From assembly GCA_036475815.1 (NCBI GenBank), contig JAZGAL010000021.1, positions 1 through 49,446 of the forward strand: 49,446 bases of DNA, in the 5' to 3' direction. The stretch's first letter is position 1, and every line of letters begins with the position of its first letter. This DNA comes from Gemmatimonadota bacterium (GTDB lineage: Bacteria; Gemmatimonadota; Gemmatimonadetes; Palauibacterales; KS3-K002). This document shows positions 17,009 to 47,516 of the stretch, piece by piece. The notes under the pieces were generated by a model. That model was given only the letters and a program-made list of their open reading frames with translations, did no database searches and had not been told where the DNA came from. Both the position numbers and the translations under genes were made by a program.

Positions 17009-17010
17009 CC

Positions 17011-22829: not shown

Positions 22830-22867
22830 TTTACTCACTCGCCGGCAGCGCTTAGGCTAGGGTCATG
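22830..22867 (+). promoter_or_regulatory. Putative sigma70-type promoter giving a leaderless transcript of the radical SAM gene
   Basis: TTTACT-N17-TAGGCT-N6-ATG(22865), with no Shine-Dalgarno. Confidence 0.5.
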
Positions 22868-26180: not shown

Positions 26181-26185
26181 GCGCC

Positions 26186-27073: not shown

Positions 27074-27507
27074 AGTTCCTGTGCGTAGACTGCGACGCCC
27101 AGATGGCATCGGTGGAGAAGACGCTCCCCGGCGACGGGACTCTGGCGCTGGTGTTCCGTTGCCCGGCCTGCGAGCGCGAGATCGCCATGTTGACCAACCC
27201 CATGGAAACACAAATGGTGAACAGCCTTTGCGTGGACGTGGGTGGCCGTGCCGTGCCGGAACAGCCGTTCGAGTTGGTTCGCTCCCAGCTCAAGACCGGC
27301 GGCGAGGACGCGTTGCGGGATATGCCCGGCTCCGCGGAGCCGACCTGGAGTGAGGAAGCGGAGGCCAGGCTGGGCCGCGTGCCGGGTTTCGTTCGAGGTA
27401 TGGTGCGTCGTCTCTACGGCGAGTGGGCTCGCGATCGCGGCATAGCCGAGGTTACGCTGGCGATGATGGATGAAGCTCGTTCAGATCTCGGGCTGGAGGG
27501 CATGTGA
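27070..27507 (+). CDS. Zn-ribbon (CxxC...CxxC) plus PCP_red-like domain protein
   Basis: CVDC and CPAC. C-terminal WSEEAEARLGRVPGFVRGMVRR...ARDRGIAEVT. Overlaps both neighbours by 4 nt. Confidence 0.75.
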   Translation: MKFLCVDCDAQMASVEKTLPGDGTLALVFRCPACEREIAMLTNPMETQMVNSLCVDVGGRAVPEQPFELVRSQLKTGGEDALRDMPGSAEPTWSEEAEARLGRVPGFVRGMVRRLYGEWARDRGIAEVTLAMMDEARSDLGLEGM

Positions 27508-27770
27508 GCGAAGCGGGGGAAGTGCGGAGCGAGGGGTTCTCCGAATTGAACGGGGTGCTGGTGCGGGTGGACCACGATATCTGTGTGGGCTTCTCCGACT
27601 GCGTGGTGGCGGCGCCGGAGGTGTTTTTTCTCAACGATGATAATCTGGCGGTCGTCGTCGAGCCCGACGCGGTGGATCTCGACACCCTCAAGCAAGCCGC
27701 CGGCGTCTGCCCTGTGAGCGCGATCTTGCTGTTCGGCGAGGACGGGACGCCGCTCGATCTCGATGCTTAA
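27504..27770 (+). CDS. Small monocluster ferredoxin (probably [3Fe-4S] type)
   Basis: VDHDICVGFSDCVVAAPEVF...AAGVCPVSAI. Only three Cys, the second canonical Cys is absent; acidic. Confidence 0.8.
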   Translation: MSEAGEVRSEGFSELNGVLVRVDHDICVGFSDCVVAAPEVFFLNDDNLAVVVEPDAVDLDTLKQAAGVCPVSAILLFGEDGTPLDLDA

Positions 27771-27794
27771 GCCGGTTCGAGGGTGGCCGTTTTG

Positions 27795-27823
27795 TTGACA
27801 GGTGGAGAGCGGGTCGCTATACT
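27795..27823 (+). promoter_or_regulatory. Near-consensus sigma70 promoter for the USP / bd-like / aa3 operon
   Basis: TTGACA(27795)-N17-TATACT(27818). Confidence 0.8.
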
Positions 27824-27842
27824 CGCACGACTATTAACAAGA

Positions 27843-27859
27843 ATAACGATTCTCGTTAT
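27843..27859. promoter_or_regulatory. Palindromic operator, Fur-family box-like
   Basis: ATAACGA-TTC-TCGTTAT is a perfect 7-3-7 inverted repeat. 27842-27860 matches GATAATGATAATCATTATC at 14 of 19 positions by my count. Confidence 0.55.
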
Positions 27860-28043
27860 CGTTGGATGTCTTGAGGCGGGGATATCGAATCCGCCGCCGT
27901 TTCCAGGTTCCGGGGCTACCACCGCTGTTCCGACAACCGAGTCTCTAACTATGGTATCGATCGCGGGTCGCGATCGTTCTTGGATATAGCTATGCGTTGA
28001 TCCTCAAGAGCTGATCTCTTAAACCCTAGGCACCGAGGGATAA

Positions 28044-29780
28044 ATGTACAAAGAGATCTTCGTTCCGTGTGACAACTCACAGGAGTGTAACTACGCTATC
28101 CACCGGGCCATCGAGTTCGCTCGGACATGCGGCTCGGAGATAGTGGGTAATCACGTTTACGCGGCGAAACTCCACGATGTGCGGTTCCGCCAGCTCGAGT
28201 CCGGGCTGCCCGCGCGGTTCCAGTCGAAAGACGAAATTCAGCACCAGCGAAAGATTCACGACAAACTGATCGAGAAGGGTCTGCAGCTGATCAGCGATTC
28301 CTTTCTAGACGAAATGGAGAAGCAGTGCCGGGCCGCGAGTCTGGAAATGAAGCGGCAGCTGCTGGAGGGCATCCATTTCGAGGAGGTCGCCAACGAGGTC
28401 AACTCAAACGGCTACGACCTCTGTGCCATGGGCGCTCACGGTTTGGGTCGCCAGCCACACTCGCAACTGGGCGGCGTAGTGTCGCGAGTGATGCGAAGAA
28501 TCGAGAAGGACCTTCTGATCGCTCGGGCGGACGCCCCGCTCGAGGGCGGGCTGTACTTGGTGTGTGTGGACGGTAGCTCGTACAGCTACCGGTCCGCGAA
28601 GATAGCGCTGGCGCTTGCGCGCACGTTCAATGCAGAGGTTCAGTTGTGCAGCGCGTTCGACCTCGATTTCCACCACATAGCGTTCAACAACATCAAGGAC
28701 GTCCTCAGCTATCAGGCGAGCCGTGTCTTCAAGTTCGAGGAGCAGGAAGAGCTCCACAACAACATCATAGACAAGGGGCTGCTCAAGCTCTGCCAGGCGA
28801 ATCTCATGAGGGCGGAAAAGATGGCCGAGGAGTACCCGGACGTGTCGGTCGGCAGTCAGGTGCTCATCGGCAAGCCGTTCGAGTGCATCCTGAAATACAT
28901 CGAGGAACTAGAGCCTGCCCTTCTGGTTCTGGCTCGCCACGGCGCGCACCGCATCGAGGGCACCGACATGGGCTCGCAGGTCGAGAACCTGGTCCGCATG
29001 GCACCCTGCAACATCCTGCTCACCGGCACCGTAGGCGTGAGTCCCGAGGATGTGCCGTGGATCGAAGAGGATGGCGTGCCCGGGCTCGAGTGGGACCCGC
29101 TGGCAGCGGTGCGCATCCAGCGGGTGCCTCCGTTCGCGCAAGGGATCGCACGCAACGCCGTCGAGGAGTGGGTCGAGGAGCAGGGTGGCGAGGTGGTCAC
29201 CAACGATCTGCTGGACAGAGCTATCCAGTCGCTGCTCCCCACCCATATGCAGCTGGTTATGGGCATCGGCCGGGCGGAGGAGATCGCCCGCGCCGAGCTC
29301 ACGGCCGAGGAGGCGCTGGCCGATCGTCCAGTTCCCATGTGTCCAATGGGCAGCGATCGGGAGGCAGCCAGGCGGCGCGCGCGCAATGGGATCACCTGGG
29401 CCTTGGATGCCTGGAATCGCCTGGAGCTCGTTCCGCTCATCGCCAGACCGTTGGCTCGATCGACCGTCGAGCGCTTCGCCAGGGATGGCGATATCGAGCA
29501 TGTGACCGTGCAGGTGATGGACGGGAACAAGCAGGCCATGATCGAGGCGGACACATTTGACATCGACACGATGATGGTGATGTTCAGCGAGCTCCGCGCC
29601 CGGGAGATCCGCGCAGGTGCGGAAGGCGATTCCGCCGAGTTCACAGAATCGGCCGACGTCGGCAAATGCCCTATCCGGGAGGTCCAGGAGATGCTCGACA
29701 GGCGCGCGAGCCAGACCGGGCCAGGGAACGGAGACGGCGGCAGCGCTCAGGGCGCTGACGCGCCCCGCTCGAACGCCTGA
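28044..29780 (+). CDS. Tandem universal stress protein (2x USP) fused to two PCP_red-like domains, with Cys-Pro motifs
   Basis: IFVPCDNS...MGAHGLG..LGGVVSRV; LVCVDGSSYS...ARHG..MGSQVENLVRMAPCNILL; WDPLAAVRIQRVPPFAQGIARNAVE; WALDAWNRLELVPLIARPLARSTVE; MCPM and KCPI. Confidence 0.8.
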   Translation: MYKEIFVPCDNSQECNYAIHRAIEFARTCGSEIVGNHVYAAKLHDVRFRQLESGLPARFQSKDEIQHQRKIHDKLIEKGLQLISDSFLDEMEKQCRAASLEMKRQLLEGIHFEEVANEVNSNGYDLCAMGAHGLGRQPHSQLGGVVSRVMRRIEKDLLIARADAPLEGGLYLVCVDGSSYSYRSAKIALALARTFNAEVQLCSAFDLDFHHIAFNNIKDVLSYQASRVFKFEEQEELHNNIIDKGLLKLCQANLMRAEKMAEEYPDVSVGSQVLIGKPFECILKYIEELEPALLVLARHGAHRIEGTDMGSQVENLVRMAPCNILLTGTVGVSPEDVPWIEEDGVPGLEWDPLAAVRIQRVPPFAQGIARNAVEEWVEEQGGEVVTNDLLDRAIQSLLPTHMQLVMGIGRAEEIARAELTAEEALADRPVPMCPMGSDREAARRRARNGITWALDAWNRLELVPLIARPLARSTVERFARDGDIEHVTVQVMDGNKQAMIEADTFDIDTMMVMFSELRAREIRAGAEGDSAEFTESADVGKCPIREVQEMLDRRASQTGPGNGDGGSAQGADAPRSNA

Positions 29781-29844
29781 CGGTGGCGCGGGTGGACCTT
29801 CCGGGAGAGATGGCGGGGTTCGCATTGGGCGGGAGCGTGCGGCT

Positions 29845-31638
29845 GTGAACGCGCGCGGCCTGATCCGGACTGCGTGCCTGGCGCTGGTGGTGGCCCTGCT
29901 GCTGACGGCGGGCGCCGACCCGGCCTGGGCTCAAGCGGGGGCGGACGGCATCCGCGAGTACGGCAACTTCCCGGTTGTGGGCAGCAGGGTCGCCGTCTGG
30001 GTCGCCGCTCAGGTGCACCTGATGTTCGCCGCCTTCGTACTCGGGGTGCCGATGTTCGCGGTCGTGACCGAGGCGATCGGCATCTTCGGTAAGGACGAGC
30101 GCTACGATCGGCTCTCGAAGGAGTTCACGCGCCTCTTGCTTGTCGCGTATAGCGCGACGGCGCTCTGGGGCGCGACGCTGACCTTCCTGCTCATCACACT
30201 GTACCCTCGATTCACGATTTACCTGACTGCGATCTTCGACGTCTCGATCTGGTTCTACGTGGCGCTCTTCTTCTTCGAGTCGGCGACGCTGTACATCTAC
30301 TATTATGGTTGGGAGCGATGGAAGAAGGGTGGCGCCAAGCTCTTCCACTGGTCTCTGGGCATCCTGCTGAACGTCTGGGGCACCGCGGTACTGTTCATCG
30401 CCAACAGCTGGCTCAGCTACATGATGAGCCCGCCGGCGGAAGTGACGCCCGATACCGCTCCGGCGCAGGTGCAGTTCTGGAGCGCCTTCGCCAACGCTAC
30501 TTGGATGCCCATCAACATCCATCGATTGATCGCGAACGTGGTCTTCGGTGGCGCGATCGTCTCCGCGTACGCCGCCTTCCGTTTCCTCTCTGCCCGCGAC
30601 CAGGAGGAACGGGCCCACTACGACTGGATGGGTTACGTCGGCAACTTCATCGCCATCGGCGCGCTGATCGTGCTGCCTTTCGCCGGCTACTGGCTGGGCC
30701 GGGAGATCTACGAGTACAACCAGGCCATGGGCATCACCATGATGGGCGGGTTCATGAGCTGGCTGTGGATCATCCAGGCGTTTTTGATCGGCGTGCTTTT
30801 CCTGGCCGGCAACTACTACCTGTGGGTGGGGATGGGCCGCATCCCGGGCGCTGAGCGCTTCACACCCTACACCAAGTGGATGCTGCTGGTCTTGATCGCT
30901 GGGGTCATCGTCTGGGCGACGCCTCACACGATGATAGCCAGCCGGGAAGAACTGGCGGCCATGGGCGGGACGCACCACCCCTTCCTGGGGGTCCTCGGCG
31001 TTATGAGCGCCAAGAACACGGCTGTGAACCTGATGATCCTGACGACGTTCCTGTCGTTCATGCTGTACCGCCGGGCCAACAAGCGGCCCGTCGTGAGCTG
31101 GGTGAAGCAGGGCACGATCGTTCAGGGCATGGCGCTGGGGCTGGCGGCGGCCGTCGTGGTCTTCTACGGAATCTATGGGTACTTCGTCACCGCCATCGTT
31201 CGGATCGGCTTCAGCGTCTATCAGGTTCTGACCGTATTGGCCGCCATGATCCTGGTGGTGGTCCTGGACATCCTCATGCTGCGAGGCGCGAAAGCGCGCG
31301 GGGCGATTCGCTGGGGTGAGATGCCCGCGCGCTCGCAATACGTGCTGATCGTGCTGGCCGTCACCTTCACCTGGCTCATGGGTCTGATGGGCTTCGCTCG
31401 TAGCGGCATCCGCCAGCACTGGCACGTCTGGGAGGTGATGCGGGATACGAGCCAGTGGGCTGCGACGCCGGCGCTCGGTTACGCGGGGATCATCATCAGT
31501 GCCTGCGTGCTGATCTTCCTCGCCATCGTTTCCTTCGTCTTCTGGATCGGCGGACTGGTGGAGAAGCCTGTCTTCGCCACGGCGAGGAGCAGCGGCGAGT
31601 CGGACTCGGGGCTGCTTCCACAGGTAGGAGGGGACTGA
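29845..31638 (+). CDS. Cytochrome bd-like oxidase subunit I homolog (CydA superfamily, Nitrospira bd-like type; no Q-loop)
   Basis: By-eye alignment to E. coli CydA: QVHLMF (His19), FFFES (Glu107), LFHW, ANSWLSYMMSP, NIHR (His186), IRQHW (GRQPW). Many TM helices and an apparent cleavable signal (AWA|Q). Start GTG 29845 follows GGGAG. Confidence 0.8.
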   Translation: MNARGLIRTACLALVVALLLTAGADPAWAQAGADGIREYGNFPVVGSRVAVWVAAQVHLMFAAFVLGVPMFAVVTEAIGIFGKDERYDRLSKEFTRLLLVAYSATALWGATLTFLLITLYPRFTIYLTAIFDVSIWFYVALFFFESATLYIYYYGWERWKKGGAKLFHWSLGILLNVWGTAVLFIANSWLSYMMSPPAEVTPDTAPAQVQFWSAFANATWMPINIHRLIANVVFGGAIVSAYAAFRFLSARDQEERAHYDWMGYVGNFIAIGALIVLPFAGYWLGREIYEYNQAMGITMMGGFMSWLWIIQAFLIGVLFLAGNYYLWVGMGRIPGAERFTPYTKWMLLVLIAGVIVWATPHTMIASREELAAMGGTHHPFLGVLGVMSAKNTAVNLMILTTFLSFMLYRRANKRPVVSWVKQGTIVQGMALGLAAAVVVFYGIYGYFVTAIVRIGFSVYQVLTVLAAMILVVVLDILMLRGAKARGAIRWGEMPARSQYVLIVLAVTFTWLMGLMGFARSGIRQHWHVWEVMRDTSQWAATPALGYAGIIISACVLIFLAIVSFVFWIGGLVEKPVFATARSSGESDSGLLPQVGGD

Positions 31639-31662
31639 TGAGAGCGGGTGGGCGGCGCTGAC

Positions 31663-32457
31663 ATGTTCGCGACCAACCTGAAGATCGCCATCGTCGTCGT
31701 CTTGACGCTCGCGGCGTACACGCTGTTAGCCAACATGATCCCCCAGATCGAGTCGGAGGTACCGGAGGAGTTCAATCTCTCGGGAGAGATTACGGCGGAG
31801 CGGCTGGTGGCTGCGGGTGAGCGTATCTACAACGGCGCGGGCGGTTGTACGGTGTGTCACGGACTGGGTACGCGCGCGCCCAACCTCTTGAGGTCGGAGG
31901 GGAATCTGGGCCGGATCGGAGCGCGCTGCGACCGCCGTGAGAGCGGGTTGGATTGTAAGGAGTACCTTTTCAGGTCCTTGACCGAGCCCGCAGGCTACGT
32001 GGTCGAAGGCTACAACCCGATCATGCCGGACGTGCGGCGCATCCTTTCCGAAGATCAGGTCTGGACGCTGGTGGCCTTCCTGGAGAGTCTGGGAGGGGAA
32101 GTGACGGTGACGGCCGACGATCTGACGCGGTGGGATGCCGGCGAGCAGGAAGAGGCGGCGACCGGCACATCCGGCGTCTCGTTGTCGTCTACGAGTGATC
32201 CGTTGGAGCTGATGACCGAGCTCGGGTGCTTCGCTTGTCATCAGCTGGGTGACTTGGGGAACGCCATTGGACCGCCGCTCACGGATGTGGGAGCGCGGCG
32301 CGAAGCGGAGTACATCCGCGAGTCGATCCTGCGGCCTCGTGCGGACATCAGCTCCGGTTACGAGACGTTTGCCGGTATGATGCCCGCGGATTTCGGCGAC
32401 CGCGTGACCGCCGCCCAGCTGGAGGCGCTGGTCGAATTCCTCGCCGCGCAACGGTGA
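31663..32457 (+). CDS. Membrane-anchored dihaem c-type cytochrome
   Basis: N-terminal TM segment, CTVCH...IMP and CFACH...MMP. Confidence 0.88.
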   Translation: MFATNLKIAIVVVLTLAAYTLLANMIPQIESEVPEEFNLSGEITAERLVAAGERIYNGAGGCTVCHGLGTRAPNLLRSEGNLGRIGARCDRRESGLDCKEYLFRSLTEPAGYVVEGYNPIMPDVRRILSEDQVWTLVAFLESLGGEVTVTADDLTRWDAGEQEEAATGTSGVSLSSTSDPLELMTELGCFACHQLGDLGNAIGPPLTDVGARREAEYIRESILRPRADISSGYETFAGMMPADFGDRVTAAQLEALVEFLAAQR

Positions 32458-32464
32458 CGTGCCG

Positions 32465-33277
32465 ATGTCGATGAATCGGATCAGAGAATATCTGCGCCAT
32501 CCTTTCTGGCAGGCTCTCCTGCTGATGTTCCTGGCCTACCTGATATTCGAGTTCGGGATCGAATACGTGCCCCCGCTGCTCGGCATCCGCAGCGCCCCGG
32601 TCCCCGACAGTGTGTTGATCCAGTATCTGCTGACCGCGCTGGTCGGCATTCTCATCTACGTAAGCGACAACGAGGCGCGTTGGGACAGGTTCAAGGAGCC
32701 GATCAAGACCTTGCTCGTCGATCCGGGCGCGCGTTGGCTTCGGGTCACGCTGATGGTGGCTTTACCGCTCTTCGTGGGCTGGTTGACCTATAGCCAGGTG
32801 AGGCCTGGCGTCGCCGCGCCCCTCCAGCTGCGCTCGATTCACCCGGCCCCCCCGACCTCCATTAGCTTCCGCGGCCGCAGGATCGAGCTGGCGGGGCTCG
32901 AGAACCCGCTGCGCGCCGATGGCTCGATCAGCGAGGACTACGAGGACGGTAAGCGGGTCTACTATCAGAATTGCCTGCCCTGTCATGGCGACTTGCTCGA
33001 CGGCAGCGGCCACTACGCCCACGGGTTCAATCCCAGACCTCTGGCGTTCACGGACAACGGCACCATCCCGCAGCTCACGGAGAGCTTCGTCTTCTGGCGG
33101 ATAGCCAGGGGCGGACCCGGTCTGCCGACGGAAGGGGCGCCGTGGAACTCGGCGATGCCGGCTTGGGAGACCATCCTCACGGAAAACGAGATCTGGGCGG
33201 TCACGATCTTCTTGTACGAGCAGACGGGCTGGACCCCACGAACGTGGGAAGACGCCGAGGGGGGTGGCCATGAGTAG
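32465..33277 (+). CDS. Membrane-bound monohaem cytochrome c (3 N-terminal TM helices)
   Basis: Three hydrophobic segments, CLPCHG, distal SAMPAW. Confidence 0.85.
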   Translation: MSMNRIREYLRHPFWQALLLMFLAYLIFEFGIEYVPPLLGIRSAPVPDSVLIQYLLTALVGILIYVSDNEARWDRFKEPIKTLLVDPGARWLRVTLMVALPLFVGWLTYSQVRPGVAAPLQLRSIHPAPPTSISFRGRRIELAGLENPLRADGSISEDYEDGKRVYYQNCLPCHGDLLDGSGHYAHGFNPRPLAFTDNGTIPQLTESFVFWRIARGGPGLPTEGAPWNSAMPAWETILTENEIWAVTIFLYEQTGWTPRTWEDAEGGGHE

Positions 33278-34832
33278 CATCGCGGCCGCTCGCGTGATGG
33301 CGATCGGATTGACCGTCCTGGTCCTGGCGTCTGAAGCGGCGACGCAGGATCTGGAGCGTGGCCAGCGGCTGTACGATCGCTGGTGCGCCGAGTGTCACGG
33401 CGTGGACGGAAAGGGCGACGGCTCGGCAGCGGCGTACATGCTGCCTCGACCGCGAGACTTCACTATGGGTATCTACCAGATCCGGACGACGCCCAACGGT
33501 GAGCTGCCCACGGACGAGGATGTGGAAAGGATCATCAGGGTCGGCATGCCGGGCACGGCGATGCCGGGCTGGGAGTCGAAGTTCAACCAGGGGGAGATCC
33601 GCGACGTGGTGGCTTACATCAAGACCTTCTCGCGGTTCTTCGAGCAACTCGGCGAGCCGAACCCGCTCGCTTTCGGGAAACCGCCGCGTCTCACTGAAGA
33701 GGGACTGGCGGAAGGGCGCCGGTTCTACAGGGAGATCGAGTGCTTCAAGTGCCACGGCGATGCGGGCCGGGGTGACGGGCCTTCGGCGCCGACGCTCCAG
33801 GATGACCTCGACTTCCCGGCACGGCCGGCCGATCTCACCAAGAACTGGACCTTCAACGGCGGGGGCACCGTCGACGAGATCTACCGGCGGTTGCGCACAG
33901 GGCTCGACGGCTCGCCGATGCCGTCGTTCTCCGACTTGATCGACTCCGGATTCATGACGGACGAGCAGCTGTGGCACGTAGCACAATACGTTCGCAGTCT
34001 GGCACCGGATGACCCTCCGAGAGTGCGCGAGGTCATCACTGCCACGCTGGTTGAGGCTGAACTGCCTGCGTCTCCTGACGACCTGTTGTGGGATGAGATC
34101 GAGCCGCTCTACATCCCGATGGTCGGTCAGGTGATCCGGCAGACTCGCTGGTTCGCGCCCACCGTGGACGGACTGTGGGTGAGAGCGGCGCACAACGGCG
34201 AGGAACTGGCGTTGATGATCACCTGGCACGATCCGTCCCGGAGCCCCGATCCCGCCTGGCTCGAATGGCAGCAGTGGATCGCGCAGTCGGTTTATCCCTT
34301 CCGGGAGACCGGCGGAGCTGAACGATTGCCCGACCGCTTGACCGTCCAGTTTCCAATGTCGATCCCTACCGGCCGCGAGCGCCCGTATTTCCTGATGGGC
34401 GATTCCCGCCGGCCGGTTTACCTGTGGCAGTGGATCAGTGATCCCGAGGAGGCTCTAGAAGCGCGCGCCACCGGGCTTGGCAGTGCGCAGGCCTTGGCCG
34501 CGGGGAGCCGGACACTCACCTGGTCCAGCTCCTGGGACCAGGGAGAGTGGCGGGTGCAGTTCCGGCGCCGACTGGCTACGGCGGATTCCGTCAATGCACT
34601 TCAATTCCTCTTGGGAGAGGCGATTCCAATAGCCTTTTTCGCCTGGGACGGCTCCAACGGCGAGAGCGGAACGCAGATGGCTATCAGTTCGTGGTACGCA
34701 ATTCATCTCCAGCAACCGGCATCGTCGACCGTCTACTTATCGCCGGTTGCGGCAATGCTGGCTACGGCCGCCCTGGGCTTCCTGGTCATCTGGCGGGCTC
34801 AGCGGCGCGAAGAAGAGGAACGGTCCTCGTAA
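33270..34832 (+). CDS. Dihaem cytochrome c fused to an ethylbenzene-dehydrogenase gamma-like (EB_dh/DOMON) haem-b domain, with C-terminal TM anchor
   Basis: Signal peptide; CAECH..TAMP and CFKCH..SPMP; PYFLMGD..PVYLWQW and IAFFAWDGSNGE..ISSW; hydrophobic C-terminal helix. Confidence 0.82.
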   Translation: MSSIAAARVMAIGLTVLVLASEAATQDLERGQRLYDRWCAECHGVDGKGDGSAAAYMLPRPRDFTMGIYQIRTTPNGELPTDEDVERIIRVGMPGTAMPGWESKFNQGEIRDVVAYIKTFSRFFEQLGEPNPLAFGKPPRLTEEGLAEGRRFYREIECFKCHGDAGRGDGPSAPTLQDDLDFPARPADLTKNWTFNGGGTVDEIYRRLRTGLDGSPMPSFSDLIDSGFMTDEQLWHVAQYVRSLAPDDPPRVREVITATLVEAELPASPDDLLWDEIEPLYIPMVGQVIRQTRWFAPTVDGLWVRAAHNGEELALMITWHDPSRSPDPAWLEWQQWIAQSVYPFRETGGAERLPDRLTVQFPMSIPTGRERPYFLMGDSRRPVYLWQWISDPEEALEARATGLGSAQALAAGSRTLTWSSSWDQGEWRVQFRRRLATADSVNALQFLLGEAIPIAFFAWDGSNGESGTQMAISSWYAIHLQQPASSTVYLSPVAAMLATAALGFLVIWRAQRREEEERSS

Positions 34833-34857
34833 CAATCATGGATGGAGGGGCAAGATC

Positions 34858-35655
34858 ATGCGTTACACAAAGCGCTCTGACACCTTGGGGCTTCTGCTCG
34901 CCCTGCTGGTCGCTGCGGGTTGCGGAGGCGGAGAGCAACGCGCCGCAGAAGAAGGGGCCGTCGGCGGAGAGACCGGCGCGGAAACCATGGCCTCCGTCGT
35001 GGACGAGGCCACGGCCGCCACGGTTGCGGGCAGCGTGATGTTCGTGGGAACCGCGCCCGAAGCGACGATGATCGACATGTCCGAGGAATCGGTGTGCGCG
35101 GACAAGTACGACGCACCGAAGTACAGTGAGGAAGTGGTCGTCAGCGAGAACGGCACCTTGGCCAGTGTCTTCGTCTACGTCAAAGAGGGGCTCGAGGACA
35201 TGACCTTCCCGGTGCCACAGGAGCCGGTCGTCCTCGACCAGGCGGGCTGCTGGTATACCCCGCGCGTCTTCGGGCTCCAAGTCGGCCAGGAGATGGTGAT
35301 CAAGAACAGCGATGGTATTCTGCACAACATCAACGCGAAGCCCTCGATCAATCGCGGCTTCAACATCAGCCAGCCGGTGGTGATGGAGACGAAGAGGACT
35401 TTCCGCTCGCCCGAAGTGATGATTCCTCTCGAGTGCGACGTGCACGGATGGATGCAGGCCTACGTCGGTGTGCTGGACCATCCGTATTACTCGGTCACCG
35501 GCGCCCATGGCAGCTTCTCGCTGGCGCCGCTGCCTCCCGGCACCTACGTGATAGAGGCGTGGCATGAGGTGTACGGCACGCAGACACAGGAAGTGACGGT
35601 GGGTGAGGGCGAAGAGCTCGAGATCGCCTTCAGCTTCGGAGAGCCCTCGGCGTAG
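34858..35655 (+). CDS. Cupredoxin-like lipoprotein with carboxypeptidase-regulatory-like beta domain
   Basis: Lipobox AAGC; LDQAGCWYTP, NSDGILHNIN and ECDVHGWM (His...Cys-x2-His-x2-Met); LPPGTYVIEAWHE. Confidence 0.7.
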   Translation: MRYTKRSDTLGLLLALLVAAGCGGGEQRAAEEGAVGGETGAETMASVVDEATAATVAGSVMFVGTAPEATMIDMSEESVCADKYDAPKYSEEVVVSENGTLASVFVYVKEGLEDMTFPVPQEPVVLDQAGCWYTPRVFGLQVGQEMVIKNSDGILHNINAKPSINRGFNISQPVVMETKRTFRSPEVMIPLECDVHGWMQAYVGVLDHPYYSVTGAHGSFSLAPLPPGTYVIEAWHEVYGTQTQEVTVGEGEELEIAFSFGEPSA

Positions 35656-35684
35656 CTCGCGCCGATAGCAAGGAGAACCCAGCG

Positions 35685-36341
35685 ATGGACTGGCTACCCA
35701 CCGCGGCGTCAACGTATGCCGCCGACCTTGACAGGATGTTCTACATCATCCTGGTGATCACAGGGATCATCTTCGTTGGCGTCGAAGGAACGCTGTTGTA
35801 CTTCCTGATCAAGTATCGTGGCCGAAGAGGCCGGAAGGCGGAGTACATCGAAGGAAGTACCAGGGCCGAAGTCATATGGACCGTGACTCCAGCGGTCATC
35901 GTCCTGGGGTTGGCCATAGCCAGCCAGGGCGTTTGGCGCGACATAAAGGACCCTGACCGCTTCCCTGCCGACGCGATAGAGGTCAGCGTTCAGGCCAGCC
36001 AGTTCGAGTGGAACGTCACGTACCCGGGCGCTGATGGCGTGTTCGGCACGGATGACGACTTCACTCGTCGAAATCAGCTGCACGTTCCGGTCGGGCAGCC
36101 CGTCGTAGTGCATCTCAGCTCGGAGGACGTGATCCACTCGTTCTTCGTGCCTGCGTTCCGGATCAAACAGGATGTGGTTCCCGGGATGAACGGCCTGAGA
36201 GCCTGGTTCGAGGCGACCGAGGTGGGAGTGTTCGAGCTGGCCTGCGCCGAGCTGTGCGGGTTGGGGCACTATCGCATGCGAGCCCGGGTCTTTGTGCACC
36301 CGCAAGACGAGTACGAGCTCTGGATGGCGGAGCAGAGCTGA
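35685..36341 (+). CDS. coxB: Cytochrome c oxidase subunit II (CuA, no fused cytochrome c)
   Basis: EVIWT, QFEWNVTYP, DVIHSFF, CAELCGLGHYRM. Confidence 0.93.
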   Translation: MDWLPTAASTYAADLDRMFYIILVITGIIFVGVEGTLLYFLIKYRGRRGRKAEYIEGSTRAEVIWTVTPAVIVLGLAIASQGVWRDIKDPDRFPADAIEVSVQASQFEWNVTYPGADGVFGTDDDFTRRNQLHVPVGQPVVVHLSSEDVIHSFFVPAFRIKQDVVPGMNGLRAWFEATEVGVFELACAELCGLGHYRMRARVFVHPQDEYELWMAEQS

Positions 36342-36385
36342 TCGGCATGACTGGTAGAGATCGAGACCGGACTTAGAGAGGTCCT

Positions 36386-38146
36386 ATGGCGACAGTCGAA
36401 GCGGTGGCCGGGCCGGTTGCCCACGCTCATCACGAAGAGACCGGCTTCATCCGCCGATACATATTCTCCACCGATCATAAGGTGATCGGCATCCAGTTTC
36501 TGTTCACCTGCCTGTTCTTCCTGGCGGTCGGTGGATTGCTGGCAATGATGATCCGCTGGCAGCTCGGATTCCCGGGCAAGCCGTTGCCCGGTGGCAGCGG
36601 TCTGCCTGACACGATGGCGCCGCAGGGCATCATGTTGCCGGAGTTCTACAACGCCCTGCTGACGATGCATGGTACGTTCATGGTGTTCTTCGCGATCATG
36701 CCGCTGCTAGTCGGCGTGTACGCCAACTTCCTCATCCCGCTGAAGCTCGGCGCTCCGGACATGGCGTTTCCGAGGCTCAACATGGCCTCCTTTTGGGTGT
36801 TCGTATTGTCAGGGATCGTGATGCTGGCGAGCCTTTTCGTGGAGGGCGGCGCGGCGGGGGCCGGCTGGACGGCCTACGCGCCGTTGAGTGCGGTGCCGGA
36901 GTACACGGGAGTGTCGCTGGGGCAGCAGCTATGGATCGTTAGCATCATCCTGTTCGCAGCGTCGTCGTTACTGGGCTCGGTGAACTACATCACGACGGTG
37001 ATCAACATGCGGGCGCCCGGCATGACGCTCTTGCGCATGCCGCTCTCGATATGGTCGCTGTTCATCACGGCGATCCTGGCCCTGCTGGCGGTGCCGATCC
37101 TGGCCGGTGCCGTCATCATGCTGCTCTTCGACCAGACGATCGGGACCACGTTCTTCCTTCCTGAGGGCGGTGGACAGCCACTGCTCTGGCAGCACCTCTT
37201 CTGGTTCTTCGGGCACCCGGAGGTCTACATCCTGATTCTCCCGGCGATGGGAATAGTGTCCGATGTCCTGGCCAACGGTTCTCGGAAGCCGATCTTCGGC
37301 TACCACTCGATGGTGTTCGCTATCATCGCGATCGCCTTCTTGGGCTGGATCGTATGGGGGCACCACATGTTCCAGAGCGGGATGAACCCGCTGCTGGGAA
37401 CCTCTTTCATGGTGTCGACGATGGCGATCGCGATTCCCTCCGCTATCAAGGTGTTCAATTGGCTGGGCACGATGTGGCGTGGGAACATCCAGTTCAACAC
37501 ACCGATGCTGAACGCCATCGCCTTCGTGGCGATGTTCACGATCGGCGGGTTGAGCGGTATCTTCATGGCCTCCAACAGCGTGGATATCTTCATCCACGAC
37601 ACGTACTTCATCGTAGCGCATATCCACTACGTGCTGTTCGGCGGCAGCCTATTCGCCATCTTCGCGGCCATCTACTTCTGGTTCCCGAAGATGTTCGGCC
37701 GGATGATGAACGAAACGTGGGGCAAGATCCATTTCGCGCTCACGTTCGTCTTGTACAACCTCGTGTTCTTCCCCATGCATGTACTCGGCATGGGCGGCCA
37801 CATGCGGCGGATCTACGACCCGACCCAGTACGATTTCCTGCAACGCTTCCAGGGTACGAACACCTTCATCTCGATCAGTGCGTTCTTGCTGTTTACCGCG
37901 CAGTTCGTGTTCCTGATCAACTTCTTGTGGAGCATGTTCAAGGGTAAGAAGGCCGAATTGAACCCGTGGCGCGACAACGGGCTCGAGTGGACGGTCCCGT
38001 CGCCGGCTCCTCATGGGAATTTTGCGGTAACGCCTACGGTGTACCGCGGCCCCTATGAGTTCAGTTCTCCGCTGGTCGAGGAAGATTTCCTGCCCCAGAA
38101 TGTTCCGCTTGATGGAGAACGGGCGGGCGTTGGCGCCGAGGGATAA
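36386..38146 (+). CDS. coxA: Cytochrome c oxidase subunit I, A1-type (second copy)
   Basis: STDHKVIG, TMHGT, DMAFPRLN, WFFGHPEVY, VWGHHM, PSAIK, IVAHIHY, MRR. Confidence 0.97.
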   Translation: MATVEAVAGPVAHAHHEETGFIRRYIFSTDHKVIGIQFLFTCLFFLAVGGLLAMMIRWQLGFPGKPLPGGSGLPDTMAPQGIMLPEFYNALLTMHGTFMVFFAIMPLLVGVYANFLIPLKLGAPDMAFPRLNMASFWVFVLSGIVMLASLFVEGGAAGAGWTAYAPLSAVPEYTGVSLGQQLWIVSIILFAASSLLGSVNYITTVINMRAPGMTLLRMPLSIWSLFITAILALLAVPILAGAVIMLLFDQTIGTTFFLPEGGGQPLLWQHLFWFFGHPEVYILILPAMGIVSDVLANGSRKPIFGYHSMVFAIIAIAFLGWIVWGHHMFQSGMNPLLGTSFMVSTMAIAIPSAIKVFNWLGTMWRGNIQFNTPMLNAIAFVAMFTIGGLSGIFMASNSVDIFIHDTYFIVAHIHYVLFGGSLFAIFAAIYFWFPKMFGRMMNETWGKIHFALTFVLYNLVFFPMHVLGMGGHMRRIYDPTQYDFLQRFQGTNTFISISAFLLFTAQFVFLINFLWSMFKGKKAELNPWRDNGLEWTVPSPAPHGNFAVTPTVYRGPYEFSSPLVEEDFLPQNVPLDGERAGVGAEG

Positions 38147-38157
38147 CGAACGACGCT

Positions 38158-38850
38158 ATGGAACGAGCAGACGAGCAGACGATGAACGAAGCCGTAGTAA
38201 TGTCCGGAAGCGTAGTAATGCCCGGAGGCGTAAGCGCCGAGCCCGGAATGCGCGTCTACAACCAGAAGCTCGGGATGTGGGTGTTCCTCACCTCCGAGAT
38301 CATGTTCTTCACCAGCTTGATCGGTGCCTACATCATCCTGCGGTTCGGGGGAGGGGCGTGGGCGTTGCCGGCTGTGCCGCTCTCAGAAGGTGGATCGCCC
38401 CTCAACATCCAATTGACCGCGCTCAACACGTTCCTCCTGATCTGCAGCAGCGTGACCATGGTGAAGGCGTTCGCGTCCATCGAGCACGGCGACCAAAAGG
38501 GACTTCGACTGTTCCTTGTGCTCACCGTGCTGCTGGGTGCTACCTTCGTGGGTATTCAGATCGTCGAGTATACCGTGCTGGCCCACGAAGGGTTCCTTCC
38601 GCATTGCAGCGCGGAGCTGGCGGCCGTAGTACCCAGCTGTCATCTGTTTGGCTCGACGTTCTATACCATGACCGGTTTCCACGGCCTACACGTAACGATC
38701 GGCGTGCTGTGCATCAGCTGGGTGACGGTGAAAGCGTTCCGTGGTGGCTATAGCAAGGAGAATCACGGCGGTGTGGAGGTGGTCGGGCTCTACTGGCACT
38801 TCGTCGACCTCGTGTGGATCATCCTCTTCACGATCGTCTACCTGATCTGA
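38158..38850 (+). CDS. coxC: Cytochrome c oxidase subunit III (second copy)
   Basis: KLGMWVFLTSE, TGFHGLHV, GLYWHFVDLVW. Confidence 0.95.
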   Translation: MERADEQTMNEAVVMSGSVVMPGGVSAEPGMRVYNQKLGMWVFLTSEIMFFTSLIGAYIILRFGGGAWALPAVPLSEGGSPLNIQLTALNTFLLICSSVTMVKAFASIEHGDQKGLRLFLVLTVLLGATFVGIQIVEYTVLAHEGFLPHCSAELAAVVPSCHLFGSTFYTMTGFHGLHVTIGVLCISWVTVKAFRGGYSKENHGGVEVVGLYWHFVDLVWIILFTIVYLI

Positions 38851-38866
38851 GGAGGTGTGGAGGTCG

Positions 38867-39169
38867 ATGAACAGCACGGAGGGTAACCTGATGGAGAGCG
38901 CCGAAAAGAAGAAGCCGAACTACTATTTCATCTGGTTTCTGCTCTTCGTCCTGACTGTGGTCGAAGTGGGTGTGGCTTACATGAGCACACTGCCGCGGAA
39001 CGTCCTGATTCTGGTCCTGCTGGCGCTGGCGCTCTGGAAAGCGACGCTGGTAGCCATGTACTACATGCACCTTAGATTCGAGAGACTGAGGCTGATACTA
39101 CTGGCCACGGCGCCGCTCCCGCTGGCAATCATCCTGGTAGTCGTGGTCCTGCTTGAATATGCGCAGTAA
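38867..39169 (+). CDS. Cytochrome c oxidase subunit IV (second copy)
   Basis: LTVVEV, KATLVAMYYMHLRFE. Start 38867 or 38891. Confidence 0.85.
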   Translation: MNSTEGNLMESAEKKKPNYYFIWFLLFVLTVVEVGVAYMSTLPRNVLILVLLALALWKATLVAMYYMHLRFERLRLILLATAPLPLAIILVVVVLLEYAQ

Positions 39170-40022
39170 GACCGTCGCCGCCGATCTGTACGAGCTGACC
39201 AAGCCCGGCATCACCCGTCTGGTGCTCATCACCACGGCGGTGGGGTTCTATCTCGGCTCGAGCGGTTCGTTCGACCTGGCTCTGCTGCTCCATGCCCTCG
39301 TTGGCACCGGGCTGCTGGCGGCCGGCACCAACGCGCTCAACCAGTGGGCGGAACGGGGCGTGGACGCCGTGATGAAACGCACCCGCGGCCGCCCGCTTCC
39401 CTCGGGACGGCTCAGATCGTCCACGGCGCTGGTCTTCTCGGTCGGGATCTCGGTTGCCGGGACGCTGTACCTGGCAACCCTGGTTAATCTGCTTACCGCG
39501 TGCCTCGGCGCAGCGTCGCTGCTGATCTACATCTTCGCCTACACGCCGCTGAAGCGGCGGACCTGGTGGTGCACGGCGGTGGGTGCGATTCCCGGAGCGA
39601 TCCCGCCGCTGATGGGATGGGCCGCGGTCACGGGAAGCCTCGACACGCTGGCCTGGGTGCTGTTCGGCATCGTCTTCCTGTGGCAGATGCCACACTTCTT
39701 CGCCATTGCCTGGCTGTACCGGCTCGACTACGCGCGTGCCGGTTTCCCGATGCTGCCGGTGGTCGATTCCGAAGGGGTGCGGACCGCGCGGCAGATCGTC
39801 CTCTACACGCTCGCCCTGCTGGTGGTGAGCCTGCTCACCTCGGTCTTGGGCCTGACGGGCGCACTCTACTTCTTCGGAGCGTTGACGCTGGGGCTGGCCT
39901 TTCTTGGACTGGCGCTGGCGCTGGCGTTCACACGCACCGGCGTTCAGGCGCGACGCCTCTTCCTCGGCTCGGTGCTCTACCTGCCGGTCCTGCTGGTGCT
40001 GATGGTCGTGGACAAGGTGTGA
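39159..40022 (+). CDS. ctaB: Protohaem IX farnesyltransferase (haem o synthase)
   Basis: LTKPGI, NQWAERGVDAVMKRTRGRPLPSG, YTPLKR, GAIPPLMGW, WQMPHF, DYARAGFPMLP. Confidence 0.95.
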   Translation: MRSKTVAADLYELTKPGITRLVLITTAVGFYLGSSGSFDLALLLHALVGTGLLAAGTNALNQWAERGVDAVMKRTRGRPLPSGRLRSSTALVFSVGISVAGTLYLATLVNLLTACLGAASLLIYIFAYTPLKRRTWWCTAVGAIPGAIPPLMGWAAVTGSLDTLAWVLFGIVFLWQMPHFFAIAWLYRLDYARAGFPMLPVVDSEGVRTARQIVLYTLALLVVSLLTSVLGLTGALYFFGALTLGLAFLGLALALAFTRTGVQARRLFLGSVLYLPVLLVLMVVDKV

Positions 40023-40031
40023 GGTAGTCGA

Positions 40032-40220
40032 ATGGTCAACTTTCACAAGGTCCTGATCTCCGCAGCGATCGTCTTCACGCTCGGCTTCGCTGTGTGGTCC
40101 GGTTGGGCCTATTCGGGGACGGGCGACTTTTGGGCGGGCGCAGCCGCCGTCGGTTTCGGCTTTGCCACGGTGGTCCTGATCCTTTACCTCAAGAACCTGA
40201 AGCGCTTCCTGGGCGAGTGA
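40032..40220 (+). CDS. Small 2-TM hypothetical protein
   Basis: RBS GAGGT, FHKVLI N-terminus, two hydrophobic helices; located inside the operon. Confidence 0.65.
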   Translation: MVNFHKVLISAAIVFTLGFAVWSGWAYSGTGDFWAGAAAVGFGFATVVLILYLKNLKRFLGE

Positions 40221-40249
40221 GCACAGGAGGGCGGACATGAGCCGGTAGG

Positions 40250-40678
40250 TTGATCTCGCTCGGCGATCTTCCCGCGGTCAACGCCACGCTGAACGGCACC
40301 AGCGCCGTGCTGCTGGTCGCTGGCTACCTGGCGATCCGTCGGGGTCGGACGAAGCTGCACCGAGGACTGATGCTGTCGGCGCTGGGTGTCTCGACCCTCT
40401 TCCTCGTCTCGTACCTCTACTACCACTACCACGTTGGGACGACCTATTTCACGGGCCAGGGTTGGGTGCGGCCCGTCTACTTCACCATCCTCATCTCTCA
40501 CACGATCCTGGCCGTGGTCATCGTCCCGCTGGTCATCGTGACCCTGTATCGTGCGCTCCGCCAGGACTTCACCCGCCACCGCCGCATCGCGCGCGTCACG
40601 TTCCCGGTCTGGCTGTACGTCTCCGTGACAGGGATCCTGGTCTACCTGATGCTCTACCAGATCTATCGGCCCGTCTAG
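40250..40678 (+). CDS. DUF420 (YozB/CtaM-like) oxidase accessory membrane protein
   Basis: LPAVNATLN, HRGLM, FLVSYLYYH, ILISHTILA, HRRIAR..FPVWLYVSVTG. Confidence 0.88.
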   Translation: MISLGDLPAVNATLNGTSAVLLVAGYLAIRRGRTKLHRGLMLSALGVSTLFLVSYLYYHYHVGTTYFTGQGWVRPVYFTILISHTILAVVIVPLVIVTLYRALRQDFTRHRRIARVTFPVWLYVSVTGILVYLMLYQIYRPV

Positions 40679-40722
40679 AAGCGCGGGGCCAATAGCTGGA
40701 GAGCAGTCGGCGCCAGCCGTTC

Positions 40723-41682
40723 CTAACCGGCCGACCCGGGCAGGCTGTCTGGAACCTCACGCTGGGCGAGGGCCGCCCAGACCACCAGCGCCGCCCAAAG
40801 CGCGACGCCGACGGCCAGGTGCAGGCCGCGCAGGTTGGGTGGAAGCTGACGGGCGACCAGCTCCGCCGCGACCCAGATCTGTCCGATGAGGAGCCCGAGC
40901 GCGACGATGGCCCAGCGCGAGACCGCGGCCGGAGCTTTGTGGCGCAGCGTTGCGATGACGGCGGTCACGATCACAACGAGCTCGGCGTAGGCCAACAGGC
41001 GGTGGGTCCAGTGAAGGTGAACGAGGCCGCCGCCCTGCGGGAACAGCCGGCCGTTGCAGAGCGGAAAGCCCTGGCAGAGCGGGGCTGCGCCCGTGTTCGC
41101 CACCAGAGCGCCGAACAGAAGGACGACGAAGCCCAGGGCCGCCGCGGCCAGCGCCCAGCGTTTGTAGGCGGCGCCGGTCCGCTCTTGCGCCTCGGGACTC
41201 GCCTCTACACGGGCCCGGAGGCCGGCGACGAGCAGTGTCGCCAGCAGGGTCAAGGCCAGCCCCAGGTGCAGCACGACTGTGCTTGTGGGGAGCTCCAACC
41301 AGACTGTTATCGCTCCCACCAGGACCTGGATAACGAGAAGGACCGCGGAAGCGATCGCCAGACCGACGACCCGGCGAGCGGCGAAACCGGAGACCTTGCG
41401 ATGCCGGATCGCGTACGCGGCGACAACGAAGACCATGATGCTCACGAGGGCCGCCGCCAGCCGGTGGCTGTACTCGATCAGGGTCTCGAAGTCCATCGGG
41501 GGAATGAGCTGGCCGTTGCAGAGCGGCCAGTCGTCGCCGCAGCCCATCCCGGAGCCGGTGATCCTCACCACCCCGCCGAAGACGATGAGAGCGTAGGTGA
41601 AAGCCGCAGTGATGAAGACCAACCAGGCGAATCGGTTGAGGATCTTCGTCGTCATCGAATCACGCTGGTCCCGATCGGGCAT
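40723..41682 (-). CDS. ctaA: Haem A synthase (CtaA/COX15)
   Basis: GGVVRITGSGMGCGDDWPLCNG, EYSHR, VVLHL, CQGFPLCNG, HWTHR, GLHL. RBS GGGAG before ATG 41682. Confidence 0.9.
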   Translation of the reverse strand: MPDRDQRDSMTTKILNRFAWLVFITAAFTYALIVFGGVVRITGSGMGCGDDWPLCNGQLIPPMDFETLIEYSHRLAAALVSIMVFVVAAYAIRHRKVSGFAARRVVGLAIASAVLLVIQVLVGAITVWLELPTSTVVLHLGLALTLLATLLVAGLRARVEASPEAQERTGAAYKRWALAAAALGFVVLLFGALVANTGAAPLCQGFPLCNGRLFPQGGGLVHLHWTHRLLAYAELVVIVTAVIATLRHKAPAAVSRWAIVALGLLIGQIWVAAELVARQLPPNLRGLHLAVGVALWAALVVWAALAQREVPDSLPGSAG

Positions 41683-41817
41683 GCTGACTCCCGGTTTCTC
41701 GATGCTTAGACGGCCGGGGCACCGCAATATGGCAGCGGGCCGGCTCGGAAGCGATGGGTCTGGGGCTGCCCGAGACAACGGCCGCTCTCGGGTCTACATT
41801 ATTATTATGTGACTACC

Positions 41818-47489: not shown

Positions 47490-47516
47490 CGACACCCGTC
47501 GCAGTGAGGTGCGGTC

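Follow-up and report, generated by a model that had tools for sequence, protein, structure and literature searches.

A cytochrome bd-like module beside aa3 oxidase genes in Gemmatimonadota: a putative joint operon

A known module in a different setting

The closest described counterpart of the locus reported here is a gene cluster adjoining nitrite oxidoreductase (NXR) in Nitrospina, Nitrospira and Kuenenia, for which Lücker et al. (2013) described the same set of parts (PMC3578206). According to the passages of that paper that deal with the cluster, its bd-like protein has 14 helices, keeps the haem-b ligands and lacks the Q-loop, and a complex-III-like role was already proposed for the module. 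The genes of the NXR-associated cluster rank, by another report, with the most strongly transcribed ones of N. moscoviensis (Mundinger et al. 2019; PMC6606698). A broader frame is given by the classification of Murali et al. (2021), the text of which defines the OR-N family by the lack of a quinol site and of a haem c motif, with 14 transmembrane (TM) helices in the N1 and N2 types, 10 in N3 to N5, and 8 in the separate OR-C family (10.1101/2021.01.16.426971). OR-N enzymes are taken there and in PMC10839748 as oxygen reductases that oxidise cytochrome c, an activity that the latter paper and PMC12342949 treat as putative. Here, we analysed a 49,446-nucleotide stretch of DNA from a Gemmatimonadota bacterium (contig JAZGAL010000021.1 of assembly GCA_036475815.1; hereafter the window), in which a module of this kind, headed by a CydA-like gene named bdL, stands directly upstream of the genes for an aa3-type haem-copper oxidase. 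What appears to be new is the joining of the known bd-like module to an aa3 oxidase operon in Gemmatimonadota and Rokubacteria, while the module itself and the complex-III-like idea have been published before. An earlier note on this DNA had suggested an uncharacterised electron-input complex in the complex III slot, an idea that is in print for the homologous module of nitrite oxidisers (PMC3578206). We found no paper describing the aa3-linked form in Gemmatimonadota or Rokubacteria, although the supplements and figures of Murali et al. may show such contexts, and the term 'bd-like' does not occur in the accessible text of a paper on Gemmatimonadota energy metabolism (PMC9426454).

The source assembly is a metagenome-assembled genome (MAG) of 2.5 Mb in 223 contigs, rated 77% complete, in which the window is contig C21. 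Of 22 sequencing runs listed, 18 contain part of the stretch, and no RNA run was among these. Near-identical proteins and contigs are named as Longimicrobiales or Gemmatimonadales MAGs, which places the source genome in the Gemmatimonadota. The module genes, all on the plus strand, are called bdL, c2A, c1B, c2EB and Cup in their order. The CydA-like bdL (29845-31638; PF01654) starts with GTG at 29845 and encodes a signal-peptide-like N-terminus; its open reading frame (ORF) opens already at 29617, but a start there would overlap with the upstream gene. It is followed by c2A (31648-32457; PF00034, PF13442), encoding an N-terminally TM-anchored dihaem cytochrome c with two CxxCH motifs, by c1B (32459-33277), encoding a multi-TM monohaem cytochrome c with one such motif, and by c2EB (33264-34832), the product of which combines a dihaem cytochrome c (two CxxCH) with an EB_dh domain (PF09459, E 4.4e-16) and a C-terminal TM helix. 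Cup (34858-35655), of which the true start is the ATG at 34858 and not 34855, encodes a lipoprotein in which an amicyanin-like cupredoxin domain is combined with a beta-sandwich of the CarboxypepD_reg-like kind (PF13620, E 3.3e-8). The oxidase genes continue on the same strand with coxB for subunit II with its CuA motif (35685-36341; TIGR02866, E 5.4e-52), coxA for subunit I of an A1-type haem-copper oxidase (36386-38146; PF00115, E 5.5e-153, 510 bits), coxC (38158-38850; PF00510, E 1.4e-25), coxD (38855-39169; PF03626, E 3.8e-14), ctaB for a haem O synthase of the UbiA family (39153-40022; PF01040, E 1.5e-61) and a gene for a DUF420 membrane protein (40250-40678; PF04238, E 6.3e-47). From bdL to ctaB, the intergenic gaps measure 9, 1, -14, 25, 29, 44, 11, 4 and -17 bases, and another 227 bases precede the DUF420 gene. 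A scan of positions 27500-42000 gave three promoter-like and ten terminator-like sites, which is not above chance (2.6 and 7.1 expected), and none of these stood out in the intergenic gaps.

The gene content that the earlier note had read from this region (a CydA homologue, cytochromes with 2+1+2 CxxCH motifs, EB_dh, a cupredoxin-like lipoprotein, coxBACD, ctaB and DUF420) was thus recovered in full by Pfam and NCBIfam matches and by inspection of the translations, at or near the same positions. Likewise, profile scans of the window ORFs bore out its statement that the window holds no Rieske, cytochrome b or alternative complex III (ACIII) gene. The window has the parts of the NXR-associated cluster, namely a bd-like protein of the 14-TM type, cytochromes c with one and with two haems, an EB_dh protein as the alternative NxrC, and a cupredoxin-like protein. 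In contrast to that cluster, however, the window encodes the dihaem cytochrome and the NxrC-like domain as one polypeptide, has one cupredoxin instead of two, and carries coxBACD-ctaB directly downstream. No NXR or other molybdopterin oxidoreductase was found among the window ORFs, the rest of the genome not having been searched for NXR.

The occurrence of the locus was followed in 201 Gemmatimonadota genomes, a sample in which the source genome is counted and which takes in the unpublished genomes G182, G157, G057 and G097. In parallel, related loci were compared, namely the best 80 of 596 confirmed matches, of which 55 have at least 6.6 kb of sequence downstream of bdL. Counts of loci and of genomes are not independent, as some loci come from genomes of the same species. 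A full-length bdL orthologue, with 70-80% identity, was present in 58 of the 201 genomes, and 16 more gave only weak matches of the canonical CydA type. The order bdL-c2A-c1B-c2EB-Cup-CoxB-CoxA-CoxC was the same, on the same strand, in all 19 orthologue loci that were selected for long contigs out of the 57 other genomes with bdL. Among the 55 long related loci, the three cytochromes were found in every case, Cup in 53, CoxB in 54 and CoxA in 53, and the order from bdL to coxBAC was kept in 53, so that the synteny on which the earlier note had staked its reading is indeed conserved. The exceptions were one locus without a Cup hit (L120), one locus of NC10 without cupredoxin or cox genes (L129) and one of Rokubacteria in which the cox genes are fragmented (L133). 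Furthermore, an orthologous CoxA (68-77% identity, paralogues reaching at most 55%) occurred in 60 of the 201 genomes, including 57 of the 58 bdL holders; in the lone holder without it, G139, the contig ends within c2EB. Chance adjacency of the module and the cox genes was considered and rejected, the gene order being conserved. We conclude from the compared sequences that the module and the aa3 oxidase genes have become one putative operon in Gemmatimonadota and Rokubacteria.

Each of the two parts was also found without the other. Three genomes of one family (G069, G128 and G155) hold an orthologous CoxA and no bd-like orthologue. In G069 (L138, contig G069:C7) and G155 (L139, contig G155:C202), coxBACD-ctaB-DUF420 occur without bd-like, cytochrome or cupredoxin genes, with CoxA at 73-75% identity and a divergent gene upstream. 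Genomes of this type are natural controls for the contribution of the module. The module without cox genes was encountered in several places. A second, enlarged copy at positions 1305-10430 of L046 (G127:C1:2109100-2129000) contains a c1B fragment, a c2EB-like gene, two cupredoxin-like genes, a bd-like gene (52% identity), c2A-like and c1B-like genes and a second c2EB-like gene, and thus encodes two NxrC-like proteins; bd-like paralogues of about 50% identity are held by G060 and G086 as well. On a contig of the NC10 bacterium CSP1-5 (L129, 593-15156), genes for a pyrroloquinoline quinone (PQQ)-dependent dehydrogenase, a solute-binding protein and a small cytochrome c precede the module, which is followed by a further small cytochrome c and no cox genes. 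Lastly, a metagenome contig of 51% G+C (L151, 678-10824) shows the order bdL-c2A-c1B-c2EB at 45%, 24%, 38% and 32% identity, with no cox genes nearby. The occurrence of the module without cox and of cox without the module implies that module and oxidase are separable units, and the core module found without cox implies that it has a function of its own.

The same metagenome contig carries a back-to-back pair of bd-like genes, one heading the four-gene module and the other, of the type named after Nitrospira and Manganitrophaceae, standing alone. This pair agrees with a remark in the published text that N1 and N2 types can share one locus.

The bd-like protein and its predicted partners

The product of bdL matched PF01654 with 80.2 bits (cut-off 26.2; E 1.5e-22), over profile positions 2-243 of 418 only, whereas canonical CydA proteins of the same phylum scored 484-504 bits across the whole profile and have cydB adjoining. 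Its AlphaFold (AF2) model, obtained with a pLDDT of 89.4 and a pTM of 0.87, displays a signal helix (residues 4-23) and 13 TM helices. Foldseek matched the model to chain A of 6RX4 (6RX4_A) with an E-value of 6.5e-10, and VIA-align superposed it on ten solved CydA chains with Z-scores of 31.8-35.1 and root mean square deviations (rmsd) of 3.4-3.8 over 348-362 residues, running from TM1 to the last helix. Since the alignment spans the first to the last helix, the nine helices of CydA are present in bdL, with about four more at the place of the Q-loop. Indeed, in both the alignments and the AF2 model, TM6 is followed by a short loop only, and four inserted helices occupy the place of the Q-loop. 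The quinol-binding residues of the Q-loop, which we take to be K252 and E257, thus correspond in position to this short-loop-plus-helices stretch. The signal helix is found in the window protein and in some lineages, while many orthologues (in L045, L047-L051, L081 and L121) do without it and start just before TM1; judged by these sequences, the 14th helix is an inconstant feature across orthologues.

Phmmer alignments placed H58, E145 and H226 of bdL on H19, E107 and H186 of E. coli CydA, Y138 on E99, and R523 on the Arg of the GRQPW motif of M. smegmatis CydA, an Arg that is presumably the equivalent of E. coli R448. Across 41 diverse family members, H58 and H226 were each conserved in 39, Y138 in 38, R523 in 34 and E145 in 31; other conserved residues include H378 and H527. 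The protein thus shares with the quinol-oxidising CydAB oxidases (qOR; E. coli 6RKO, Geobacillus 5DOQ) the fold, the equivalents of H19, E107 and H186, and the GRQPW-aligned Arg. It differs from them in covering half of the PF01654 profile, in lacking the Q-loop, in its four inserted helices, in the replacement of E99 by Tyr, in having no CydB that we could find, and in a long tree branch. As to CydB, PF02322 had no match in the whole assembly, which at 77% completeness does not prove its absence from the organism, and no CydB lay beside bdL in any related locus scanned with the window proteins; the lack of cydB asserted in the earlier note thus extends to what is assembled of the genome. A quick, midpoint-rooted IQ-TREE phylogeny of 37 rows separated the three canonical CydA proteins of the phylum from the other 34, all bd-like, with SH-aLRT support of 100; the branches between the two groups measured 4.1 and 1.0 changes per column. 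The window protein fell among Gemmatimonadota orthologues, next to Rokubacteria and NC10. Relatives that share 38-46% identity with it over the full length carry the names Nitrospira, Manganitrophaceae or Nitrospinae in their sources.

Together, these comparisons indicate that bdL is not an ordinary quinol-oxidising CydA, in keeping with what the earlier note had suspected: it has no Q-loop and belongs to a bd-like, OR-N clade set apart from canonical CydA in the tree. By the text definitions of Murali et al. (2021), bdL is a member of the OR-N family in its 14-helix class, N1 and N2 being left undivided. It resembles the N1/N2 'bd-like oxidases' of Nitrospira, Nitrospina and Ca. Manganitrophus in its CydA fold, which retains the first helices and the H19 position, in lacking both the Q-loop and any CxxCH motif (the count in bdL is 0), in its signal helix plus 13 TM helices, and in occurring, as those often do, without a second CydA-like gene. 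In contrast to these proteins, bdL is hosted by a heterotroph lineage of Gemmatimonadota and not by a nitrite or manganese oxidiser, and it is joined to an aa3 operon. It is also the most conserved protein of this operon, with 69-88% identity across the phylum as compared to 67-77% for CoxA.

The other products of the module are predicted electron carriers. In the N-terminal membrane domain of c1B, a hydropathy scan marked two strongly hydrophobic segments, and a third TM helix was read by eye from the sequence; the mean column identity of c1B was 63% in an alignment of 16 orthologues, from which the row of L134 was dropped because it contains a stop codon. The c2EB protein consists of a signal peptide, a dihaem cytochrome c, the EB_dh (NxrC-like haem b) domain and a C-terminal TM anchor at residues 489-512, and it matched TIGR03477 with an E-value of 1e-23, which is under the cut-off of that model. 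In Cup, the ligand set H...C-x2-H-x2-M (H157, C194, H197 and M200) was invariant in all 19 aligned copies, with a C-x2-H-x2-M loop spacing that we take to be of the amicyanin type. Its sequence matched no Pfam cupredoxin family. The AF2 model (pLDDT 88.3), however, was matched by Foldseek to amicyanin, pseudoazurin, plastocyanin and a NirK domain with E-values of 1e-5 to 5e-4, the target TM-scores being about 0.55-0.71 for the single-domain proteins. The fold and the invariant ligands agree with the earlier label of a blue-copper-like lipoprotein, and on this modelled basis Cup is a predicted type-1 copper cupredoxin of the amicyanin-like kind.

On the oxidase side, the translation of CoxB carries the CuA motif as H-x34-CAELCGLGHYRM, in agreement with the pattern H-x34-C-x-E-x-C-x3-H-x2-M. 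The protein scored 176 bits with TIGR02866, over the cut-off, and has neither a CxxCH motif nor a cytochrome c domain. CoxA scored 650.7 bits with TIGR02891, slightly below the cut-off of 670.75. Its translation carries GHPEVY, PDMAFPRLN and PSAIK, which provide the helix-VI Glu and the D- and K-channel motifs, and GHPEVY is, as we assume, a mark of A1-type subunit I.

Two kinds of evidence support the view that the bd-like protein and the cytochromes form one membrane complex. The first is the existence of natural fusions. In P0122, P0125 and P0132, the bd-like protein is extended at its C-terminus by an extra TM helix and one or two c2A-like cytochrome c domains, and in the NC10 locus L129, c1B and c2EB are fused into one protein of 727 residues. 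The second is the co-folding of bdL (residues 37-585) with c1B, for which a separate alignment was supplied per chain. The three runs gave ipSAE values of 0.71, 0.74 and 0.73 (median 0.73), whereas three controls all gave 0.00; the partner pLDDT was 75-77, and the runs shared at least 50% of their contacts. In a benchmark, the threshold was met by 58 of 80 solved complexes and by 2 of 110 mismatched pairs, which is only a rough guide here, as custom alignments were used. The physical partnership of cytochromes and bd-like protein that the earlier note had put forward is supported by these results. The predicted interface comprises residues 306-381 of bdL, which are the helices at the place of the Q-loop and include the conserved T359-P360...E369...H378 loop, and on c1B the helix 43-75 together with an invariant RSIHPAPP stretch at 118-130; the haem domain of c1B contacts periplasmic loops of bdL near R48 and Q524-H525. 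A cytochrome c is thereby predicted to occupy the site where quinol usually passes electrons to haem b558. We know of no similar solved complex.

Candidate roles of the module

The earlier note had suggested that the module may occupy the complex III slot, and had named genome-wide absence of bc1 and ACIII as a check. Such an absence was not seen. A contig of 3.9 kb (C72) carries at C72:1-3610 (L005) an NrfD-type ActC that is cut at the contig end (NrfD, E 4.2e-23), ActD (PF11821, E 4.4e-40), a monohaem cytochrome c (ActE) and an ActF-like membrane protein of 438 residues, in what is presumably the gene order of ACIII. A cytochrome b of the b6/ExtP-like kind is encoded on contig C17:1051-2076 (L004) with no Rieske gene adjoining, and three Rieske-domain hits were obtained on other contigs of the source genome. 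ActD was encoded by 190 of the 201 Gemmatimonadota genomes, among them 57 of the 58 with bdL, and by three of the four module-carrying genomes of Rokubacteria and NC10. The only candidates for a module-bearing genome without both ACIII and cytochrome b are incomplete assemblies, namely G185 (94% complete) and G204 (1.9 Mb). Furthermore, the window itself contains a second haem-copper oxidase operon, of the caa3 type, on the minus strand (16036-20138), 10 kb upstream of the bdL module; like the ACIII fragment on C72 and the cytochrome b on C17, this operon had not been part of the earlier note. With ACIII in the same genome, ActD across the phylum and a second oxidase in the window, the argument from a vacant slot fails, and the bd-like module is probably not a stand-in for complex III. 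The module does recall an ACIII gene set joined to a cox operon, in that a haem-rich membrane module stands directly upstream of cox and its membrane subunit aligns with ActC at a Z-score of about 20. It differs from ACIII, however, in having no Fe-S/molybdopterin-like subunit ActB, no pentahaem ActA and no match to the NrfD family, and in the presence of a real ACIII elsewhere in the genome.

For the role of the module, we tentatively favour a bd-like oxygen reductase that is fed by cytochrome c or cupredoxin, is co-expressed with aa3 and draws on a wire supplied by ACIII. The tethered cytochromes and the cupredoxin would form a high-potential wire on the periplasmic face, taking electrons from ACIII as a menaquinol:cytochrome c enzyme. 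Electrons on this wire would reach two sinks: the CuA centre of aa3, the subunit II of which carries no cytochrome c, and the haems of bdL, a protein that would work as an oxygen reductase without copper and dependent on cytochrome c, in line with the proposal for OR-N enzymes. Rather than replacing complex III, the operon would then encode a respiratory chain that branches at its end to two oxidases. What leads us to this reading is the retention of the H19 and E107 positions and of the GRQPW-aligned Arg, the docking of a cytochrome c in the place of the Q-loop, the independent occurrence of the module and the presence of ACIII. In particular, the apparent retention of the buried Glu and of the ligand of the oxygen-binding haem would be hard to explain if bdL only oxidised quinol. 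The earlier note had suggested that the bd-like module may be an electron-input complex and not a terminal oxidase. Of this, the distinction from an ordinary quinol-oxidising CydA stands, while the missing Q-loop and the retained positions of the oxygen-haem pocket (H19, E107 and the Arg) speak against the remainder.

Several points weigh against such an oxygen reductase. Two terminal oxidases in one operon would be unusual, and five c-haems, one b-haem and a copper seem many carriers for the input of an oxidase and may rather, by analogy, recall ACIII-type reductases. The position directly upstream of coxB is often held by ACIII or bc genes. Equivalents of M393 and E445 were not identified in the alignments of bdL, and with Tyr at the E99 position, the haems bound may not be those of bd oxidases. 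In one genome that consists of a single contig and is rated 100% complete (G141), the haem-copper oxidase of this operon is the only one, a finding that would fit a quinol-oxidising module equally well. Lastly, PMC10839748 states that no OR-N member has been purified or assayed, and PMC12342949 likewise stresses the lack of experiments.

A quinol-oxidising module is the first alternative, in the form of a new quinol:cytochrome c (or cupredoxin) oxidoreductase that would feed the CuA of aa3 as a supercomplex, in parallel to ACIII. It would explain both the gene position and the many haems, and it accords with the conserved order from bdL to coxBAC, with the orthologous CoxA in 57 of the 58 bdL holders, with a CoxB that has no cytochrome c domain and with a haem-rich wire resembling that of ACIII. 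The same possibility has been raised for the homologous protein (PMC3578206). The model of bdL also aligns with the quinone-binding subunits ActC and PsrC (the latter with a Z-score of 15.8), but this likeness may be common to all CydA folds. Moreover, bdL has no Q-loop and no sign of another quinol site, its conserved H19 and E107 equivalents would be left without a role, and with ACIII present in this and in nearly all module genomes, no vacancy is left. Three genomes of one family with the aa3 operon but no module, and the module without cox elsewhere, also argue against this reading, which we consider rather unlikely. About as unlikely is its fullest version, in which bdL, the three cytochromes and Cup would make up a third kind of menaquinol:cytochrome c/cupredoxin oxidoreductase, with a quinol site formed by the four helices that replace the Q-loop and the membrane helices of c1B, wired to the CuA of aa3 as a supercomplex and perhaps in need of a haem tailored by an AhbD/NirJ-like enzyme.

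The NxrC-like domain of c2EB (PF09459, TIGR03477) raises the question of soluble partners. The module might be a membrane electron hub for periplasmic dehydrogenases, in which the haem-b domain would dock a soluble oxidoreductase, bdL would link the wire to the quinone pool (reverse flow) or serve as an anchor, and electrons would pass on to aa3; a hub of this sort has been proposed for nitrite oxidisers and anammox bacteria. This is in line with the NXR genes that adjoin the homologous cluster in Nitrospina, Nitrospira and Kuenenia (PMC3578206, PMC6606698), and with the NC10 contig, where the module is preceded by genes for a PQQ dehydrogenase, a solute-binding protein and a small cytochrome c. 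However, no gene for a molybdoenzyme or periplasmic dehydrogenase lies beside the module in the window or in the scanned Gemmatimonadota loci, a quinone site is missing for this role too, and heterotrophs with complex I-type input would need little reverse electron flow, all of which makes a hub improbable. A non-respiratory role, be it the protection of aa3 by scavenging NO, peroxide or oxygen, or the delivery of haem or copper to aa3 and its assembly, has in its favour that NO and oxygen are detoxified by canonical bd oxidases, too (PMC10839748), and that haem- and Fe-S-handling neighbours are conserved (AhbD-like radical SAM, PCP_red, Mrp, ferredoxin, ctaA and ctaB), but it is highly improbable for a module that brings a full set of electron carriers, contains the most conserved protein of the operon and occurs with no cox gene near.

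OR-N enzymes are thought to be terminal oxidases of key nitrifiers, and none has been assayed. Fixed as four to five genes to an aa3 operon, with no NXR gene in the window, the module appears here separated from nitrite oxidation, and aerobic heterotroph lineages offer a simpler setting in which to test oxygen reduction, as we favour, against quinol handling. The predicted docking of c1B, the natural fusions and the radical SAM/PCP_red neighbours supply concrete hypotheses for mutagenesis and structural work.

Neighbouring genes

Upstream of bdL, the plus strand carries a series of genes with predicted haem- or Fe-S-related products. The first encodes an AhbD/NirJ2-like radical S-adenosylmethionine (SAM)/SPASM protein with a C-terminal PCP_red domain (22865-24184; Pfam Radical_SAM, SPASM and PCP_red; TIGR04545, E 1.1e-103, under the cut-off; NirJ2, E 7.7e-97). 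It is followed by genes for an Mrp/NUBPL-type, MrpORP-like Fe-S cluster carrier (25922-27073; PF10609, E 4.2e-64; NF041136, E 4.1e-66, under the cut-off), a small PCP_red-domain protein (27070-27507; PF08369, E 1.8e-15), a single-cluster 4Fe-4S ferredoxin (27504-27770; PF13370 and PF13459, E ~4e-9) and a protein in which Usp domains are fused to two PCP_red domains (28044-29780; PF00582, E 2.3e-31; PF08369, E 7.8e-18), the last of these ending 64 bases before bdL. Four PCP_red-domain proteins were counted within 7 kb. The best promoter-like match of the region, at 27795-27823, lies just upstream of the Usp-PCP_red gene and is a pattern match only.

A radical SAM homologue of 43-50% identity was located directly upstream of bdL in nearly all related loci (e.g. 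L037:3625-4887). In all of five near-complete genomes, the radical SAM/SPASM-PCP_red gene is present as the only copy, and ChdC, the usual haem-b synthase, is encoded elsewhere. The set at 25922-29780 (Mrp, small PCP_red, ferredoxin and Usp-PCP_red) is common to Gemmatimonadota and NC10 loci, with the ferredoxin present in many of them. The upstream set, or the radical SAM enzyme in it, may make, deliver or tailor haem for the bdL operon, and the AhbD/NirJ2-like protein itself may act in oxygen-independent haem synthesis or in the tailoring of haem. Downstream, and convergent with the operon, a gene on the minus strand encodes a haem A synthase of the CtaA/COX15 family (ctaA, 40723-41778; PF02628, E 7.9e-40).

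The caa3-type operon on the minus strand comprises coxB, fused to a cytochrome c domain (18942-20138), coxA (17011-18906), coxC (16421-17008) and coxD (16036-16410). A gene for an HmuY-like haem-binding protein lies directly upstream of this coxB on the same strand (20135-20779), and ctaG, for a caa3 assembly factor, is found beside the operon on the plus strand (15123-15941). Further downstream in the window, the region 46797-48821 encodes two more cytochromes, one of 230 residues with haem domains of the CCP_MauG/SoxA type and one of 434 residues that is multihaem and has cytochrome c554/MtrC-like matches.

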